A stretch of DNA of 58,687 nucleotides, from NCBI GenBank assembly GCA_964592525.1, contig CAZQFB010000005.1, forward strand, positions 1 through 58,687, in the 5' to 3' direction. The position numbers were made by a program, and so were the translations under genes. Source of the DNA: an uncultured Candidatus Saccharibacteria bacterium (GTDB taxonomy: Bacteria; Patescibacteriota; WWE3; CAZQFB01). A model generated the notes under the pieces. The model was not told the DNA's origin, made no database searches, and saw nothing but the letters and a program-made list of their open reading frames with translations. Position 1 is the stretch's first letter. Each line of letters begins with the position of its first letter. Positions 40,181-49,556 of this stretch are shown here, in pieces.

Positions 40181-40215
40181 AGAAACGGCTTGATATTAGC
40201 ATAGTACCTTAATAA

Positions 40216-40848
40216 TTAGTTAGAAAGTATTTTCACAAGTTCAACTGGTGAGTCAATAATCCAATCGGGTTGTTCCTTTTCCAGCAGAGTTCGTGAGTTG
40301 TATCCCCAAGTAACAGCTACTACCTTCACTCCTACTTTATGTGCACTAATAACATCTCGCACTTCGTCACCAACATAAATCATTTCAGACGTGCTCAAAT
40401 TATTACTTTCCAAGATGTTTTGAATTAAGGTTTCTTTTTCGAAGAAAGTATCATCTTGATAGACAAAATCAAATATTTCCAGAGCGTTTTTACGAAGGTA
40501 GCTTTCAATGGTGGCTTTTGCATTTGAGGAAAGGATGCCTAGTTGATAATTTGTATTTAGGGTGTTAAGGGCTTCCGTCATACCTTCAACCACCGGAAGG
40601 TCTTGTATTTTAGTGGCCATATTAGCTTGAAGCCGGGGGAGCATTATTTTCAAAGTATCCCCTGTCACACCTAGCTGATGTAAGTAAGCACCTATGCCCG
40701 CTGTCCTCGCAATTTCTAAATCCTCATCGGTTACCGCGCGGTAACGATAATCGGTACGAACTTCATTCCAAACCTTTTTAAGGAGAATGAAAGAATTGGT
40801 AACCACCCCATCAAAATCAAACAGCACCAATTTAATTTTGCTAGTCAT
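40216..40848 (-). CDS. HAD-family hydrolase (phosphoglycolate phosphatase-like)
   Basis: LFDFDGVV motif I, ILSSN, YVGDEVRD, VTWGYN. Confidence 0.9.
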   Translation of the reverse strand: MTSKIKLVLFDFDGVVTNSFILLKKVWNEVRTDYRYRAVTDEDLEIARTAGIGAYLHQLGVTGDTLKIMLPRLQANMATKIQDLPVVEGMTEALNTLNTNYQLGILSSNAKATIESYLRKNALEIFDFVYQDDTFFEKETLIQNILESNNLSTSEMIYVGDEVRDVISAHKVGVKVVAVTWGYNSRTLLEKEQPDWIIDSPVELVKILSN

Positions 40849-41081
40849 CAACCGCTAATGCTATCACATCAATGTAATTTTAGGTTTTACCTGATTACTC
40901 GGTTATTAAGTAGAAAGGAACAAAATATAATCTTTTGTTATCAGCTTCACCGACTCATAAACATTGTGCATCTGCGCTGTAATTTCTTTTTCTGGTTAGG
41001 AAAAACTTATCAAACCCAACAAACAAACATTATTGGGTTTTAATCGTGGAAGTAAAAAATCAAACCTTTCGTGTTATTATA

Positions 41082-41102
41082 TTAATTAATTAACTGGATT
41101 AA
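41082..41102. repeat. 21-bp direct repeat, copy 1 (putative operator)
   Basis: TTAATTAATTAACTGGATTAA, identical to 41623-41643. Confidence 0.9.
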
Positions 41103-41108
41103 TACAGA

Positions 41109-41552
41109 ATGACAAGAATATCTTCTCGAAAACTAAACCCCTATATTCAAGAAAAGGTTCAGGAAATGTTTTGGCATGCCATCGCCTCTACCAAAAATGA
41201 GGCGGAAGCAAAAGACCTCATTAAAGATCTCCTAACCACCACCGAGATGGTTATGCTCTCTAAAAGAGTAGCTGTTGCTTATCTCTTAAATAAAGGTGTT
41301 TCCTTTGAAGAAGTTGGCGAAATAATGAAAGTTAGCACCACAACCGTAGGTGCTGTTGCTTTAAGAATTAAAAACAAAGAGAAGGGTTTATCTAAATTTG
41401 TTTTCAAACTTGAAAAAAGAAGGGGTAAGGAAAAAACTATTGAAGAAATATTAGATATCTTTTCGCACCCACTTCTCTTTCCAGGATTAAATTGGAGTCG
41501 AATCCAGAAAGAAAGATTTAAACGTAAAATGGAACGACAAGAACCATTTTAA
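41109..41552 (+). CDS. TrpR-like / YerC-YecD family HTH protein
   Basis: DLLTTTEMVMLSKRVAVAYLLNKGVSFEEVGEIMKVSTTTV, matching the TrpR-family LLT..E...L..R...A.LL..G...HTH pattern. Confidence 0.85.
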   Translation: MTRISSRKLNPYIQEKVQEMFWHAIASTKNEAEAKDLIKDLLTTTEMVMLSKRVAVAYLLNKGVSFEEVGEIMKVSTTTVGAVALRIKNKEKGLSKFVFKLEKRRGKEKTIEEILDIFSHPLLFPGLNWSRIQKERFKRKMERQEPF

Positions 41553-41610
41553 CTTCACCAAAATTTATTAAGCTACTAACCAAGCTAAAGAAAGACCTAA
41601 GTAACCACAC

Positions 41611-41646
41611 CACTTAATCCAGTTAATTAATTAACTGGATTAAGTG
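41611..41646. repeat. perfect 36-bp palindrome containing direct repeat copy 2
   Basis: CACTTAATCCAGTTAATT|AATTAACTGGATTAAGTG is its own reverse complement. Confidence 0.95.
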
Positions 41647-41979
41647 TAAGTGTGGGGGTGGGGGTAGGTGTATATGAAAGGAAGAGAAATAAGATTCAAG
41701 AGAGAACCTAAAAAACGGGAAAAGTTAACAGCCGCCAGCAAGAAACATAAAGGGTATTTATTTTTCCAGGTGCATAATTAATTTCTGCACAAAACGATTA
41801 AAAAAACCCAAACTAACTTAAATAACCAAAGCAATTTCCGGAATCTTTAATAAATTAACACACTACCTATCAGACTAAATTTGGAGGGGTAAGGCCCTAC
41901 TGCAAGTTAGACAAGCTTTAAGTAATCGCACTAATAAGAATGCTAGTACCTTGTCAGGAAGTTAAACTACTAAAGCTGA

Positions 41980-42954
41980 TTAGAGGCTTAAACTTGGGTT
42001 GGTCTTAATATGTTCCCAAGAGACGACATTTTGGTTGAAATAAGCACAGGAAGCAATATATGCAGCATTATCTGTACACAGTGCAACCGGAGGAATACAC
42101 AGTTTATACTTATTTACCGCATATTCACCTAGCATTTCCCGCAGCCTTTGGTTAGCTGCAACCCCTCCCGCTAAAAGAATTGTGTTCGCCCCCTTTTCTT
42201 TTACCGCAGAAAGTGTCTTTTTAACTAATACTTCTGCTACCGCCTCCTGGAAAGAAGCGGCCACATCGGCAATATTTGCTCTGGGGTTTTCCTGAATATA
42301 AGTACGGACTGCCGTTTTAAGACCAGAAAAAGAAAAATCAAAATCAGCACTCCCCAACATTGGACGGGGAAAGTCAATGGCGTTGCGCTTGCCTTCTAAA
42401 GCCGTTTCCTGGATAGAGGGACCGCCAGGATAAGGTAGGTCCAACAATCTCGCCACTTTATCAAAAGCTTCACCAGCAGCATCATCCCTAGTGCCACCCA
42501 ACCATTCATAATCACCGTGATCTCGCAGATATACTAATTCGGTATGACCACCAGAGACAATTAAAGCCACAGCTGGTAATACGGGCTGTGATTCTGTTAA
42601 CCAATTAGCATAGAGATGGGCTAAGAGGTGATTTACTGCCAACAAAGGTTTTTGCCAGACATAAGATAAAACACGAGCAGTCTCTACCCCGATTAAGAGA
42701 GAGCCAATCAAGCCCGGACCTACAGTTACAGCAAAAGCAGCTAGTTCAACCCCTACTTGTGTTTTCATAACGGCTGATAAAACGGGGATGATTTCCTCAA
42801 TTTGCGCTCGCGCGGCTACCTCGGGCACAATGCCTTGGGTTTGTTGGTGTAAGGATTGAGAAGAAAATACGGTGGAGGAGCATAGTCTAACCCCATTTTC
42901 AACCACTGCCACCGCCGTTTCGTCGCAGGAAGATTCTATACCTAGTATTTTCAT
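41980..42954 (-). CDS. tsaD: tRNA N6-adenosine threonylcarbamoyltransferase TsaD
   Basis: ILGIESSCDETA, GPGLIGSL, VNHLLAH, TRDDAAGEAFDKVAR, FSFSGLKTA, CTDNAA. Confidence 0.98.
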   Translation of the reverse strand: MKILGIESSCDETAVAVVENGVRLCSSTVFSSQSLHQQTQGIVPEVAARAQIEEIIPVLSAVMKTQVGVELAAFAVTVGPGLIGSLLIGVETARVLSYVWQKPLLAVNHLLAHLYANWLTESQPVLPAVALIVSGGHTELVYLRDHGDYEWLGGTRDDAAGEAFDKVARLLDLPYPGGPSIQETALEGKRNAIDFPRPMLGSADFDFSFSGLKTAVRTYIQENPRANIADVAASFQEAVAEVLVKKTLSAVKEKGANTILLAGGVAANQRLREMLGEYAVNKYKLCIPPVALCTDNAAYIASCAYFNQNVVSWEHIKTNPSLSL

Positions 42955-44303
42955 TTAAGAGGGGCGATACCGTTACGTTTAATTAAATCCTGTAAGGTTT
43001 TTTGGGCTGTCGTTAAAGCTATTTGAGAATCACCACCATTTTCAATCACATTATTGATAATTTCCACATAGGGGTAATTACCTGCATAATCGGTAATGAA
43101 CCAGGTTACTGCGGTGGGAGCTCCCTGAACCAAAGGTCGTAAGTACTTATGCTCCGACAAATTAACCGCCATATCTTTACGGGGGTAAGGCTCACCAAAA
43201 GATCGTACTGATTCAGCCAGAGAAAAAAACTTCAACTGTGCTTCACGACTACTTAGATATTTAATAAAATCCCAAGCTACTTCAGGATATGCTGAATCCT
43301 TAGATACCGTTTCCATCCAAAAATTAGCCCAATTAACTGTTTGATCGGTGGTTGATGGCGGTTGCGGTACTGCTGTCGCACGCATATTTAAACCAGGATT
43401 CAAGTCTTGAATATCATGCAACCACCAGGAAGGTACAAATATCATTGCCACCTGTCCATTGATAAATGCATCCACCGAAGATTTAAAAGACCGATCCCAA
43501 ACTTGATCCTCTGTATAAAAACTACGGTAAACATCCAAGGCGTCGGCTGCACTTTGAGAAGATAGCTCCTCTAAAGTATCCACCCCCACCTGTGCCATCA
43601 TCAAACCCAAGATATCACTGGCATGGGGGATGTTTTGGCTTAGGCCAATCGCCGCCCCAGCCTGGATAATTTTTCCGGTAGCTGGTTTGCGCAAAGCTTT
43701 GGCTAATTCCGAAAACTCTAGCCACGTTAATTTATCCCCATATCCCGGAACAGCTACCCCAGCCTCATTGAAAAGATCAACATTAACCAATAACAACAAG
43801 CCTTCATACATCAAGGGTATCCCATAAAGATTATCTTTCAAATTAGCCTGGGCATAAGCTACGGGGTAATAGTTACTAGCGTATTCCTCGTTGTTCATAA
43901 CACTAGCAGGCAGTGGTGTTAATTCAGAAGAAAATTGGTACAACCAAGTGGAATGAACGCGCATAATATCCGGACCGGTATCACTACGTAAGCGGCTTAA
44001 TAATAATTCCCGGTGGTTATCCCAATGTTTCCTGGGGTCCCTCTCGGGACTATTGGAATACCTTTGTTCATAAGTGATTGTTAAAGTTGAGCCGGGATTT
44101 TGCTCTTCAAACAAGGAAACGTAATCGGAAATTAAAGGCGCCATAAATTCTTCCGATTCAAAAATACCCCAGTAAGTTAAATTGATATCCCTGACCTCTG
44201 GTTTTTTTTCTCGCTGTAAAAATTTAACTACTAATAACACAGCCAAAATCACAATCAGCACTAGCGGGATGATGATCAATAGATATTTTATTTTTTCACG
44301 CAT
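42951..44303 (-). CDS. membrane-anchored sugar ABC-type extracellular solute-binding protein
   Basis: N-terminal TM, LTYWG, GPDI, YGIPL...LLLVNVDLF.EAG, F.NGQVAMIF, AWDFIKYL. Confidence 0.88.
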   Translation of the reverse strand: MREKIKYLLIIIPLVLIVILAVLLVVKFLQREKKPEVRDINLTYWGIFESEEFMAPLISDYVSLFEEQNPGSTLTITYEQRYSNSPERDPRKHWDNHRELLLSRLRSDTGPDIMRVHSTWLYQFSSELTPLPASVMNNEEYASNYYPVAYAQANLKDNLYGIPLMYEGLLLLVNVDLFNEAGVAVPGYGDKLTWLEFSELAKALRKPATGKIIQAGAAIGLSQNIPHASDILGLMMAQVGVDTLEELSSQSAADALDVYRSFYTEDQVWDRSFKSSVDAFINGQVAMIFVPSWWLHDIQDLNPGLNMRATAVPQPPSTTDQTVNWANFWMETVSKDSAYPEVAWDFIKYLSSREAQLKFFSLAESVRSFGEPYPRKDMAVNLSEHKYLRPLVQGAPTAVTWFITDYAGNYPYVEIINNVIENGGDSQIALTTAQKTLQDLIKRNGIAPLK

Positions 44304-46329: not shown

Positions 46330-47615
46330 AAGAGGGCTCTCCCCTGGACTAGCTTTCTAATAGCTAACATCGCAGAATAAGTTGCTAGTATCGGTATTTT
46401 TTGAGCAGGGTTCTGTTGTAATGTTTTGAGTAGCATGGAATAATCCTCAATTACTTGCTCCTTTAAAACCTTACAATCTAGGGCATATTCCACTCTCAAA
46501 GCCAAATCCCAAGCCCTAGTACCAGTGATATAAATGTGTTTATAGGAAGCTAAAAAATGTTCAAAATCAACATCCCACAGCCAAGAAACATCCCGGCCAT
46601 CCGGAATATTATCATTAAGGGCTAGCACTAAAACTTGAGGTTGGTACTCTAAAGCAGCAATTGTCGCTAAGGTTTCATTAAACCCAGTGGGATTTTTACT
46701 CAAAAATACATGTAGCTGTTTAGACCCCCAAGTTAAAATTTCTCCGCGACCAAAAACTGGCTGAAAATTAACCAACGCTGGGGTGATTGTCTTTTGGCTA
46801 TAGCCTAATTCCTGCAAAGCTAAGTAAGCTCCTGCGAGATTAGATTCATTAAATAAGCCCACTAAAGTATGTGGCATTTGACCTGCTTCTTGAGCTAGCT
46901 TGGGTCTAGTCAACTGACAGTAAGAACAGTACCAATCACCTAGATGGGCATAGTGAATCTGACGATAGTTTAGTTTTTGACCACAACGAGGACACCAATC
47001 ACTATCAGGTACATGGCGGTGGTTAGCGACTATCTTTTTGGTACCGATACCAAAATAGCAGACCTGATGTTTAGTGTTAATCCCCAAATAAGCTATGGCG
47101 GGATCCTCCCCATTTAAGATTAGCTTTGTCGGGCTTATTTTTGACAACGCTTCTTGCCACTTGTTGATTATTATTTCCACCTCGCCATATCTATCTAACT
47201 GATCTCTAAAAAGATTGAGAAGCAAAATAATCTTTGGTTTAAATTGCTTTAAAATTAATGGTAAGACATTTTCATCCACCTCAAGTACTGCCACATCAAC
47301 CACTAAACGTCCTCGCCAATCACAGTGCTTAATAATAGCTGATGCTATACCATTTAATAAATTGGCCCCACTAGGATTAGCCAATACCCTTAATTTTTGT
47401 TGGGTTAGAACATGAGTAATAATCGACGCCGTGGTGGTTTTACCATTAGTACCAGAGATAATTACCACACCCCCTGGGAGGTCTTTCAATTTTTTGGCTA
47501 TAAAGTGAGCATCTAGTAACAACACTAAGTGACCAGGCCAAGTACCACCAGAACCGAGATTCAAATAAGTAGCACTAAATTTAACGATTTTAGCCAACCA
47601 AAAAATCAATAACAC
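46326..47615 (-). CDS. murT: lipid II isoglutaminyl synthase Mur-ligase subunit (DUF1727)
   Basis: SGTNGKTTT, GANLLNG, NLFRDQLDRYGE, Zn ribbon CPRC...CSYC, DGRDVSWLWDVDFE, ATYSAML. GTG start. Confidence 0.93.
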   Translation of the reverse strand: MLLIFWLAKIVKFSATYLNLGSGGTWPGHLVLLLDAHFIAKKLKDLPGGVVIISGTNGKTTTASIITHVLTQQKLRVLANPSGANLLNGIASAIIKHCDWRGRLVVDVAVLEVDENVLPLILKQFKPKIILLLNLFRDQLDRYGEVEIIINKWQEALSKISPTKLILNGEDPAIAYLGINTKHQVCYFGIGTKKIVANHRHVPDSDWCPRCGQKLNYRQIHYAHLGDWYCSYCQLTRPKLAQEAGQMPHTLVGLFNESNLAGAYLALQELGYSQKTITPALVNFQPVFGRGEILTWGSKQLHVFLSKNPTGFNETLATIAALEYQPQVLVLALNDNIPDGRDVSWLWDVDFEHFLASYKHIYITGTRAWDLALRVEYALDCKVLKEQVIEDYSMLLKTLQQNPAQKIPILATYSAMLAIRKLVQGRALL

Positions 47616-47654
47616 ATCGGGATTATAACAACAACTAAACTTATAAGTATTAAA

Positions 47655-47906
47655 TAGAAGTAGTACTAGTAGTATAGGTGGATAAGGTGGATATCTCGTT
47701 TAAGTCCTAACTGACAACTAAAGCAGTTCATGCAATTGTGGGTAAACAGTAAGCTTTTAAGCTCAAGCTATTTTCGGTTAAGAAACCTTTTTTCGCCTTG
47801 TTTTAGGCTTTGATAATGGTGGATAACTGGGTTTTTTTGTGGGTAATCTTGTTGATATATTGACCTGTTATCAACATAACTTATAGTACTTTTTAGGTTA
47901 TACACA
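47655..47906. other. replication origin oriC (unwinding sub-region downstream of dnaA)
   Basis: DnaA boxes at 47677-85 (GGTGGATAA), 47686-94, 47737-45, 47818-26, 47838-46, 47868-76 and 47898-906 (TTATACACA). DnaA-trio run TAG AAG TAG TAC TAG TAG TAT (47655-75) lies next to tandem boxes. Strand G/C bias appears to flip here. Confidence 0.88.
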
Positions 47907-49253
47907 GACTTTTTCTTTGATAACGCTGATTTGTTTTTTTAGTAGTTCATCTTCGTGGCATTTATGGGTAATACTTCTAATGCCATGCATAATGGTAGTA
48001 TGGTCTCTGCCCCCCAGTACATCGCCAATGGCCATTAGAGGTAAATCTGTTAAATCGTTAATTAGATACATGGCGATTTGTCTGGGGTGGACAAAGTTTT
48101 TCTTACGGGAATTACCTTTTAAATCAGCTAAAGTGATTGAAAATATCTCACACACGTTTTTCATTATCTGTTGGGGTGTAACCAAAGTATTTCCTTTGTT
48201 CTGTATGGAATGCATCTGTAGTAGTTTAACGGCATCTTCTATGGTAATGGGTTGGTGTTGTGTTCTTTCGTAAGCCACAATTTGTTTATATGCTCCTTCC
48301 AGTTCGCGTACATTGGCTACGATATTATCAGCAATAAGGTTTCTGATTTCTGCGGTGAGCTGATGTTGGTATTGTTTTTCTTTGGCTTGGAGAATAGCCA
48401 GTCTTACTTCCGCGTCAGGGGCTTGCATATCAGCAATCATCCCAGCCGCAAATCGGGATCTTAAACGTTCTTCAATTCTTTGAATATCTTTGGGAGGTCG
48501 GTCCGAAGTAAAGACTATTTGCTTGTTAGCCATATAAAGAGAATTAAAGGTATTAAATAACTCTTCTTGGGTTGATTCTTTGCCAGCGATGGATTGAACG
48601 TCATCCACTAACAGTACGTCAGTATCCCGGAACCTTTTTTTAAATTGATGCTGTGTCCGGTTACGGATCGCGTCTACCAAATCATTCATGAAAGATTCCA
48701 TGGGCGTGTATAAAACCTGAATATTTTCATGCATTGCTCTGATTTGGTTACCAATGGCATGAAGCAGGTGGGTTTTACCCAAACCAACACCGCTGTGGAT
48801 GAAGAAGGGGTTGTACGAGCCCGGTTCTTCAGCGATACTAAGGGCTACTGCACTGGCAAGTTGATTATTACTACCCACAACAAAACTATCAAAGGTGTAA
48901 TGGCTATTAAGATTACTGGTATCTTTATTAGGTTTATTTTTCACAAGGGTGTTGGCAAAAATAGGACCTAATTCTGTATTATTTTCTGTTGTCTCTTCGC
49001 TAATGACACTGAAACACAACTCAATGGCTTCACCCATAATTTCTTCCAGACCTTCTTTGATAGGACCTTGAAATTTTTCTCTTAATCTTTGGGTGGTAAA
49101 AGGGTGGGGTGTTCCAACATTGATCCTGATAGGTTTATTAGTATGGTCAATACTCGTTATTTTAGTGTTGTGGAAAAAAGTGTTGAAATCAGTTGTTGGT
49201 ATTTTAAGCTGGATCTTTTCTAAGGTGGTTTTCCAAATTATGGCATTATTCAT
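47898..49253 (-). CDS. dnaA: chromosomal replication initiator DnaA
   Basis: YTFDSFVVGSNN, GVGLGKTHL, LLVDDVQ, RLRSRF, NVRELEGA, RQIAMYL, GGRDHTTIMH. Confidence 0.99.
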   Translation of the reverse strand: MNNAIIWKTTLEKIQLKIPTTDFNTFFHNTKITSIDHTNKPIRINVGTPHPFTTQRLREKFQGPIKEGLEEIMGEAIELCFSVISEETTENNTELGPIFANTLVKNKPNKDTSNLNSHYTFDSFVVGSNNQLASAVALSIAEEPGSYNPFFIHSGVGLGKTHLLHAIGNQIRAMHENIQVLYTPMESFMNDLVDAIRNRTQHQFKKRFRDTDVLLVDDVQSIAGKESTQEELFNTFNSLYMANKQIVFTSDRPPKDIQRIEERLRSRFAAGMIADMQAPDAEVRLAILQAKEKQYQHQLTAEIRNLIADNIVANVRELEGAYKQIVAYERTQHQPITIEDAVKLLQMHSIQNKGNTLVTPQQIMKNVCEIFSITLADLKGNSRKKNFVHPRQIAMYLINDLTDLPLMAIGDVLGGRDHTTIMHGIRSITHKCHEDELLKKQISVIKEKVCV

Positions 49254-49286
49254 GACTAACAGGTAGCAACAACCATATTAAAACAT

Positions 49287-49326
49287 TGTGGATAACTGTC
49301 AACAGCCCTCTTTTATTTGTGGATAA
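49287..49326. promoter_or_regulatory. two perfect DnaA boxes in the dnaA-rpmH divergent promoter region
   Basis: TGTGGATAA at 49287-49295 and 49318-49326, each followed by CTG. Confidence 0.85.
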
Positions 49327-49394
49327 CTGGGAAGAAAATTGACTATTCACGTGGATTCAATTACCATAAGCTCCGATATTACAAGAAGGTTTTA

Positions 49395-49556
49395 ATGAAA
49401 AGAACTTGGCAGCCAAAAAAACACAAAAGAATGAGAAAGCACGGTTTCTTGAAGCGGATGAAATCAGTTGGTGGGGTTAATGTTATCAAACGCCGTCGGA
49501 CTAAAGGTAGAAAAGTATTGGCAGTAAAAAGGACAAGTAAAGGGATAACGAAGTAA
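49395..49556 (+). CDS. rpmH: 50S ribosomal protein L34
   Basis: [22 protein letters not shown]...[10 protein letters not shown]. True ATG at 49395. Confidence 0.97.

Follow-up and report, generated by a model that had tools for sequence, protein, structure and literature searches.

Why would a small regulator-like gene carry the same sequence at both of its ends? On contig CAZQFB010000005.1 from an uncultured Candidatus Saccharibacteria bacterium (phylum Patescibacteriota; assembly GCA_964592525.1), a gene for a TrpR-like protein lies between two exact copies of a 21-bp sequence, and the downstream copy is part of a perfect palindrome of 36 bp. (We refer to the whole stretch of 58,687 nucleotides that was analyzed as the window.) A first-pass annotation, made from the sequence alone, had offered three explanations: an autorepression operator with a second operator downstream; the ends of a mobile one-gene cassette; or an RNA hairpin that is complementary to the gene's own 5' untranslated region (UTR). 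We found that this bracket is a conserved feature of a large family of TrpR-like genes in the Patescibacteria, that the palindromes differ from locus to locus, and that copies of one class of palindrome lie at the boundaries of other genes. Our preferred explanation, which we hold with moderate confidence, is that the 21-mer and the palindrome are cognate operators of the protein: the 5' copy would serve for autorepression and the 3' copy as a boundary or auxiliary site, with re-use at other boundaries in some lineages.

Homologous genes are bracketed by palindromes of their own

The first-pass annotation had proposed to look, among homologues from the Candidate Phyla Radiation (CPR), for gene-specific 5' motifs that are duplicated as 3' palindromes, and it had named a one-off local duplication as the alternative. 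A word-index protein search and a genome-collection scan returned the query itself only; an exhaustive HMMER search found 1137 homologous cluster representatives (clusters at 50% identity). Nearly all of these proteins are 140-155 amino acids long, and they align end to end with the query at 42% identity or less. The family conserves the TrpR core LLTPTEK-MLAKRLAIA..KG..I...LKVS..TI and a C-terminal P-x-G-x-NW motif. A degenerate-peptide scan that was based on a 10-sequence alignment, with one genome per species, gave 80 loci; an alignment of 60 sequences was too diverse to serve as the basis for finding loci. All of the homologous loci are from Patescibacteria (Gottesman-, Levy-, Curtiss-, Roizman-, Woese-, and Shapirobacteria, and some Parcubacteria), and several metagenome-assembled genomes (MAGs) carry two paralogues. 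Many MAGs that have the gene in Patescibacteria-like contexts (L005, L006, L008, L013, and others) are titled "uncultured Gammaproteobacteria" or "Pseudomonadales" (third-party annotation [TPA] assemblies); these titles are probably wrong.

At 77 loci, we compared the 150 nt upstream of each family gene with the 400 nt downstream and recorded the longest exact word that the two flanks share. (Gene starts at these loci are model-based, and related loci are not phylogenetically independent.) The longest shared word averaged 18.2 nt, with a maximum of 37, versus 9.0 ± 1.75 nt (99th percentile, 16) for mismatched flanks from different loci. With symmetric flanks of 150 nt, a shared word of at least 14 nt was present for 78% of 76 family genes, as compared to 1.8% of 279 other genes at those loci. 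The proposed search was thus clearly positive, with co-evolving pairs of sites, and the idea of a one-off duplication is refuted, because homologous loci carry gene-specific 5'/3' pairs.

The placement of the sites is fixed as well. At nearly every locus, there is an upstream palindrome whose end is a median of 12 nt from the ATG, and its sequence recurs in a second palindrome that begins a median of 7 nt (0-20 nt) past the stop codon. The arms have a median length of 11-12 nt and reach 19 nt. Neither a G-run nor a T-run is found in the 15 nt after the 3' sites. The neighboring genes are randomly oriented on both sides: downstream, 45 are co-directional and 33 convergent, and upstream, the two orientations number 37 and 39. 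The 3' site is kept with co-directional downstream genes (80%) and with convergent ones (61%). We therefore rejected the general explanation that it is just an operator for the gene that follows, as the downstream gene is convergent at 33 of 78 loci and most of those keep the site.

We also rejected two other general descriptions of the sites. Stop codons in all six frames are not a defining property, since they occur in 24.5% of family sites versus 11.5% of mirrored shuffles. (The window palindrome, whose center is TTAATTAATTAA, has stop codons in six of six frames.) Nor are the arms extended -10 promoters in general: a strict -10-like hexamer stands at a suggestive position in 15-18% of sites.

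The sequence of the palindrome is specific to the locus: examples are TGTTATCATGTTTTAAAACATGATAACA, CGCTACAATGTATTAATACATTGTAGCG, and GCTTTAATGATTTAAATCATTAAAGC. Half-sites from the 5' and 3' ends of the same gene differ at 2.4 of 12 positions, and half-sites from non-self pairs differ at 6.3 of 12. Paralogues within one MAG have different palindromes, each of which brackets its own gene, and across loci the divergence of the site correlates with the divergence of the protein (r = 0.48). When 19 full-length proteins were picked solely by an adjacent AATGATTTAAATCATT palindrome, they had the helix pattern VS-x-[A/P]-T-[I/V]-[A/T]-[S/G]-V in common, and some of them are just 27-41% identical overall. 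The protein at L048, which is 61% identical to that at L037, has a glycine at that helix position, and its site has the center TTCGAA versus TTTAAA. These comparisons are suggestive of residue-level covariation between protein and site. Overall, the gene probably carries its own predicted binding sites at both ends.

Sites are built from hexamers

When the arms are read outward from the center, they show self-similarity at 8 bp (match fraction of 0.53 versus 0.32; z = 12.8). Each arm consists of two direct copies of a hexamer, such as AATACA-TT-AATACA or GATACA-TC-GATACA. The arm positions A2, C5, A6, T7, and A11 are conserved across the family. In about 70% of sites, the symmetry continues through the exact center. 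Mismatches between the arms show no strand bias of G.T over A.C (9 versus 7).

The window locus follows the same plan (Table 1). With up to three mismatches, the 21-mer has 3 matches in the 58,687 bases, versus 0.03 expected, and none of 100 shuffles reached 3; the third match is on the minus strand, as the downstream copy is palindromic. The longest word that is common to the 5' and 3' flanks of the gene is 21 nt, which makes it the lone outlier among 57 ORFs (open reading frames) of the window (mean, 8.3; standard deviation, 2.1). The 36-bp palindrome is the sole long perfect palindrome in the window. At the 5' copy, the place of the missing fourth (outer-left) hexamer is taken by the -10-like TATTAT, and the site directly adjoins TGTTATTAT. 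Our consensus promoter scan, which needs a -35 element, did not list TG-T-TATTAT. The 3' palindrome has a loopless stem that is rich in A+T, and GTGTGGGGG comes after it; the terminator scan made no call there, and the G+C-rich stem and U-tract of an intrinsic terminator are absent. Beyond a 3-nt bulge, pairing resumes between CCACAC (41605-41610) and GTGTGG (41650-41655), and the extended stem, as RNA, has 22 bp and a folding energy of -35.6 kcal/mol (z = -5.6). The coordinates in the first-pass annotation for the -10-like element, both 21-mers, the ATG at 41109, the palindrome, and the G-run were all confirmed by reading the sequence.

Table 1. Features of the TrpR-like locus in window coordinates (a slash marks the center of the palindrome)
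Feature	Position	Strand	Remarks
Extended -10-like element TG-T-TATTAT	41072-41080	+	Read from the sequence; putative promoter function
5' site TTAATT/AATTAA-CTG-GATTAA (21-mer TTAATTAATTAACTGGATTAA)	41082-41102	+	Exact 21-mer repeat; 3 of the palindrome's 4 hexamers; ends 6 nt before the ATG
Gene for 147-aa TrpR/HisR-family DNA-binding protein	41109-41552	+	PF01371, AlphaFold, Foldseek
Extended bulged stem CCACAC...(palindrome)...TAA bulge...GTGTGG	41605-41655		RNA fold
3' site: perfect 36-bp palindrome CAC-TTAATC-CAG-TTAATT/AATTAA-CTG-GATTAA-GTG	41611-41646		Four hexamers; 58 nt past the stop codon
21-mer within the 3' site	41623-41643	+	Exact copy
21-mer within the 3' site	41614-41634	-	Exact copy
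G-run GTGTGGGGGTGGGGGTAGG	41650-41668	+	First six bases form the outer stem; the G-run is not a family feature

Copies of the palindrome at other gene boundaries

We scanned metagenome contigs for the Levybacteria-type site TTYAATGATTTAAATCATTRAA and obtained at least 120 loci. Among the matches listed, to which all of the orphan counts here and below refer, about 25 loci have a family gene with both 5' and 3' copies; at about 95, a lone copy (an orphan) lies on a retrieved stretch that has no family gene. These orphans belong to one specificity class and to other genomes than that of the window. All of them are intergenic, in 71 distinct contexts, and their similarity stops at ±14, so the element is a palindrome of 28 bp. 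The flanking genes are co-directional in 49 cases, convergent in 12, and divergent in 9, as in random intergenic placement. The center of the orphan lies -10 to +19 nt from a stop codon in 51 of 86 cases, and there is a second peak at 20-28 nt upstream of a start codon (20 of 79). Many orphan copies supply or adjoin the stop codon of the upstream ORF.

Extra copies are also found near the gene itself. At the loci that were selected by protein, the density of such extra copies is 3.0 per 100 kb for the palindrome of the locus itself, versus 0.125 for foreign palindromes, which is a 24-fold difference; 10 of 64 loci have such extras. At L064 and L079, a third copy lies past the neighboring gene (at about 1930, after a NUDIX hydrolase, and at about 1830, after a 139-aa ORF, respectively), so that consecutive genes are punctuated by one and the same element. 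At L043, two additional copies lie downstream (3110 and 3316). The TrpR-like protein probably has targets beyond its own gene, because in some lineages the same palindrome appears to be re-used at other gene boundaries.

The protein belongs to the TrpR family

The 147-aa protein matches the TrpR family in Pfam (PF01371) over residues 19-98, with 47.5 bits versus a cutoff of 27 (E = 1.9e-12). It scores below the cutoff of the NCBIfam model for YerC/YecD (TIGR02531; 30.7 bits versus 42.2) and also below that of the NCBIfam model for TrpR. The AlphaFold model (pLDDT of 86.8) has the all-helical fold of TrpR, with the helix-turn-helix (HTH) formed by helices D and E, followed by a long helix (residues 92-118) and a basic helix (residues 129-143). 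The top matches in Foldseek are the YerC-type structures 3G1C, 3FRW, and 3KOR, followed by E. coli TrpR (target-normalized TM scores of 0.70-0.85; the best, 0.85, is to 3G1C), and a profile search matched 3FRW with E = 4e-13. About 50 amino acids at the C terminus, including the P-x-G-x-NW motif, have no counterpart in 3G1C, 3FRW, 3KOR, or the TrpR structures. We found just a TrpR-type HTH and two helices in this protein and no catalytic domain, and its matches in PADLOC and PHROG are marginal HTH or sigma-like noise, with no meaningful match to a defence or phage family.

The first-pass description of the gene as TrpR-like therefore stands on both the Pfam threshold and the fold. Similarly, its statement that the window contains no trp genes agrees with the ORFs that we examined, which include neither trp nor his genes. 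The protein falls within the TrpR family and is not an equivalog of HisR/YerC or TrpR, given the scores below both cutoffs, the longer operators, the additional C-terminal module, and the lack of his or trp context.

Proposed mechanism and alternatives

In our proposal, the TrpR/HisR (YerC) family of dimeric HTH repressors has a large subfamily that is specific to Patescibacteria, and the protein belongs to it; binding itself, repression, roadblocking or looping, and the oligomeric state are what we infer in the scheme that follows. Autorepression is proposed because the 5' copy lies between a -10-like element and the ATG: protein bound there would shut its own promoter. The two hexamers per arm would leave room for more than one dimer, as in the tandem binding of TrpR. 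At the far side, the complete 3' copy would mark where the transcription unit ends. Protein bound at this copy, possibly aided by the palindrome's hairpin, could form a boundary (roadblock or terminator-like) or an auxiliary operator. Such a complex would stop transcription that leaves or enters the gene. Bridging between this complex and the 5' site may also occur, perhaps via the C-terminal helices that are specific to the family. In at least some lineages, the palindrome would then be re-used at other gene boundaries. Given the positive result with homologues, the first of the explanations in the first-pass annotation, an autorepression operator plus a second operator downstream, is the best fit. 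That annotation had seen the bracket itself; it did not foresee that the palindrome class would occur at other gene boundaries, the paired changes in dyad symmetry that are described below, or the operators of four hexamers.

Several observations weigh against this proposal. The window site has a register of 9 bp instead of the 8 bp of the family. The spacing between 5' and 3' sites shows no helical phasing (Rayleigh p of 0.17-0.33). A partial Mantel test on four recognition-helix positions gave r = 0.08, with equal or higher values for controls, so covariation particular to that helix does not stand out beyond phylogeny, and we dropped the assignment of the covariation to those positions, for which the support is anecdotal. 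The scan for more copies, which the first-pass annotation had suggested, was productive at homologous loci, as described above, and found no further copy in the 58.7-kb window, either of the site or of a 20-nt core within the palindrome, which leaves a wider regulon unproven in the source organism. Finally, the arms change together. When the 5' and 3' sites of a locus are compared, 12 differences are paired changes in both arms and 10 are in a single arm, where 0.27 paired changes are expected if the arms are independent. The paired changes are at spacer positions 8-10, and some are common to related loci, which leaves about 7 independent events. Similarly, in orphan sites, positions ±9 are complementary in 70 of 71 (0.62 expected) and positions ±12 in 65 of 71 (0.45 expected). 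The 6-bp extension of the window stem points in this direction too. Independent recognition of half-sites does not predict paired changes; they point to pairing in a hairpin or cruciform or to correction of one arm by the other. Possible causes are thus selection for the hairpin or cruciform, arm-to-arm correction of the palindrome, or an oligomer's need for strict symmetry.

These data are an argument for a different view, in which the palindromes are a dispersed hairpin element that resembles repetitive extragenic palindromic (REP) sequences and acts mainly as a nucleic acid structure (3' stem-loops by which transcripts end or are stabilized, cruciforms, or single-stranded DNA hairpins), with the protein as a RAYT-like partner that maintains, regulates, or otherwise acts on the elements. 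We regard this view, which is partly compatible with operators, as possible and on balance doubtful. Beyond the preserved pairing, it would account for the many intergenic orphans with their random-like orientation, for their concentration near stop codons, for the third copies that punctuate neighboring genes at L064 and L079, and for the extension of the window stem past the bulge, which an operator does not need. However, in most sites the symmetry runs through what would be the loop, the 8-bp hexamer repeat in the arms has no role in a hairpin, and the mismatches lack the bias toward G.T. There is also no U-tract after the 3' sites, the 5' copy is at the promoter or 5' end, the protein has no catalytic domain, and the 58.7-kb window holds no extra copies.

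A mobile one-gene cassette, with the 21-bp direct repeats or the terminal palindromes as recombination sites, would explain why a single gene is bracketed by repeats, why contexts vary across the family (88 of 154 neighbors are singletons), and why some genomes have several paralogues. We consider it very improbable. The neighbors are core housekeeping genes that are conserved within sublineages only (recA, folD, a NUDIX hydrolase, metG, cmk, gyrA, glmS, dnaB, and tatD), and this pattern suggests stable chromosomal genes and not an obviously mobile cassette. No recombinase is evident beside the loci, and one host recombinase cannot serve all of the paralogues in a genome, as their palindromes differ. 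The first-pass annotation had also suggested looking for empty sites or circles in reads: in the unitigs and contigs of three wastewater metagenome runs, at 3-8x depth, we found no excision or empty-site joints at the locus. Instead, the Logan unitigs of these runs end exactly at the palindrome (41612-41643), which is an assembly break typical of palindromes. We found neither relatives in viral contigs nor a phage or defence signal; with the PADLOC and PHROG matches being marginal noise, we also rejected a phage or defence origin as such. We set aside a protelomerase or telomere-resolution site, as the palindrome is internal to a continuous housekeeping region and is one of two sites per gene across the family.

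The remaining explanation from the first-pass annotation, pairing within the mRNA between the 3' hairpin and the 5' UTR of the same gene (by circularisation or in an antisense-like manner), deserves scarcely any credence, and the same holds for its weaker version, chance duplication in A+T-rich DNA. Identical palindromes are indeed complementary to each other, and the 21-mer could be in the 5' UTR if transcription starts just past TATTAT. But RNA pairing needs complementarity and not palindromic sites, and it leaves the hexamer register and the orphan copies unexplained. Chance duplication is excluded by the expected number of matches in the window and by the shared words at 78% of family loci.

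Comparison with known systems

HisR (YerC) is a histidine-dependent repressor with palindromic operators of 20 bp (cacTTTAnnnnnnTAAAgtg) and is autoregulated in about half of genomes (PMC9413887). More broadly, the operators of HisR and TrpR alike are palindromic, and autoregulation is frequent in both (PMC9413887). In E. coli TrpR, half-sites have an 8-bp register and dimers bind in tandem (PMC9413887); by its entry title, PDB 1TRR, which is among our fold matches, belongs here. The protein from the window resembles these regulators (PF01371; 3G1C, 3FRW, 3KOR, 1TRO, and 1TRR) in its fold and its HTH and in having a palindromic candidate site before its own gene. The outer ends of the window palindrome, CACTTAAT...ATTAAGTG, also resemble the HisR consensus cacTTTA...TAAAgtg. 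In contrast to HisR and TrpR, which have fewer than 110 amino acids, it has about 147, owing to the conserved C-terminal extension; most members of the family have a second site of the same sequence past the stop codon; and there are several paralogues per genome, each with its own site, with no his or trp genes nearby. HisR sites are 20 bp long and lie upstream of genes for histidine biosynthesis or transport, whereas the sites in this family are 28-36 bp long, consist of four hexamers, and flank the regulator, so they do not qualify as HisR operators.

Auxiliary operators that act by looping are familiar from lac (O1-O2), gal (OE-OI), and phage lambda (OL-OR around cI). As in those systems, the window has a site near the promoter and a second site of the same sequence downstream, about 480 bp away from center to center. 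Unlike in those systems, the second site lies just past the repressor's own stop codon and is often the more perfect one, there is no helical phasing, and the site recurs singly at the ends of other genes.

In REP systems (REPINs), a RAYT gene has REPs on both sides, and RAYT is a transposase of the HUH/Y1 (IS200/IS605-like) type. The TrpR-like family resembles them in that its gene is flanked by two copies of a palindrome. Dispersed intergenic copies by stop codons were seen for one specificity class, and a low density of extra copies near further loci, with none in the window. But the protein is a small HTH protein without an HUH/Y1 nuclease domain, so it is not a RAYT, and the palindromes, unlike REPs, are perfect through the center, are built from hexamers, and are low in copy number (about 3 per 100 kb near the gene). 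The "stoperators" of mycobacteriophage L5 are sites of protein roadblocks that are asymmetric and depend on orientation. Like stoperators, the palindromes lie at gene boundaries, irrespective of orientation; unlike them, they are symmetric. We found no description of a TrpR-like gene that is bracketed by its own palindromes in the searchable literature.

A role as a boundary or insulator is suggested by the conserved site past the stop codon and by the orphan copies at gene ends. Such a role has not been described for TrpR-family proteins, and, if real, it matters for how minimal genomes set the limits of their transcription units. It is conceivable, as a speculation that we would not bet on, that each of the more than 1000 clusters of TrpR-like proteins in Patescibacteria is paired with a private palindrome that brackets the protein's gene and serves as a protein-dependent punctuation mark, and that such marks have been copied to the ends of other genes, where a complex of protein and DNA, or a hairpin that the protein recognizes, would terminate or insulate transcription in genomes that are poor in classical terminators and regulators. 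If so, this would be a partnership of gene and element like that of RAYT and REP, on the fold of a repressor instead of a transposase. The CPR/Patescibacteria make up a large part of bacterial diversity, nearly all of it uncultivated, and their gene regulation is essentially uncharted. Here, an abundant regulator family (1137 clusters at 50% identity) has the likely binding site of each member beside its gene, twice. Such pairs of protein and likely operator amount to a ready natural library of specificities for a simple HTH fold, and the family is amenable to study in E. coli or in vitro without culturing the source organisms.

Genomic setting and other features of the window

The TrpR-like gene is in a core chromosomal region that includes a ribosomal protein cluster and rpoB/C, with dnaA-rnpA-yidC-dnaN 6-10 kb away. 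Upstream, on the opposite strand, are genes for a HAD hydrolase and valyl-tRNA synthetase (ValRS), and downstream is a convergent gene for TsaD. The gap of 427 bp between the TrpR-like and TsaD genes (41553-41979) is long for a compact genome and has no annotated gene. In addition to the palindrome and the G-run, it contains an ORF for a basic peptide of 37 aa (41668-41781, with a GTG start) and a weak copy of the site (75%; 41759-41782), which we set aside as probably due to chance. Scans of the window for Rfam families and for tRNA and tmRNA found nothing at the gathering threshold, and around the locus just noise at E values of up to 10. In the three wastewater runs, the sole variant across 40200-43000 was C>T at 42894, in one run; read joints at 42344-42452 were rejected as cross-mapping inside the conserved TsaD gene.

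The cumulative GC skew reaches its lowest point at about 47-48 kb, which makes the dnaA region the likely oriC, 6-8 kb from the TrpR-like gene. The dnaA gene itself (47898-49253, minus strand) is flanked by clusters of 9-mers that resemble DnaA boxes, at 47615-47906 and 49254-49330. One side has GGTGGATAA twice, TGTGGGTAA twice, and TTATCAACA; the other side has TGTGGATAA twice; and GTGGATAACTGGG is present on both flanks. A 53-aa ORF that resembles rpmH (49395-49556, plus strand) lies just 5' of rnpA; it is shorter than the minimum ORF size in our map of the window.

At the other end of the window, which is otherwise about 40% GC, there is a G+C-rich intergenic block (2270-2456). It has no match to an Rfam family. 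It contains an inverted repeat of 22 nt (2311-2332 and 2358-2379; GGGCGGGGCGGGCA ... TGCCCGCCCCGCCC) that is 86% complementary, as well as further GC hairpins. The block may encode a structured RNA or serve as a strong terminator.

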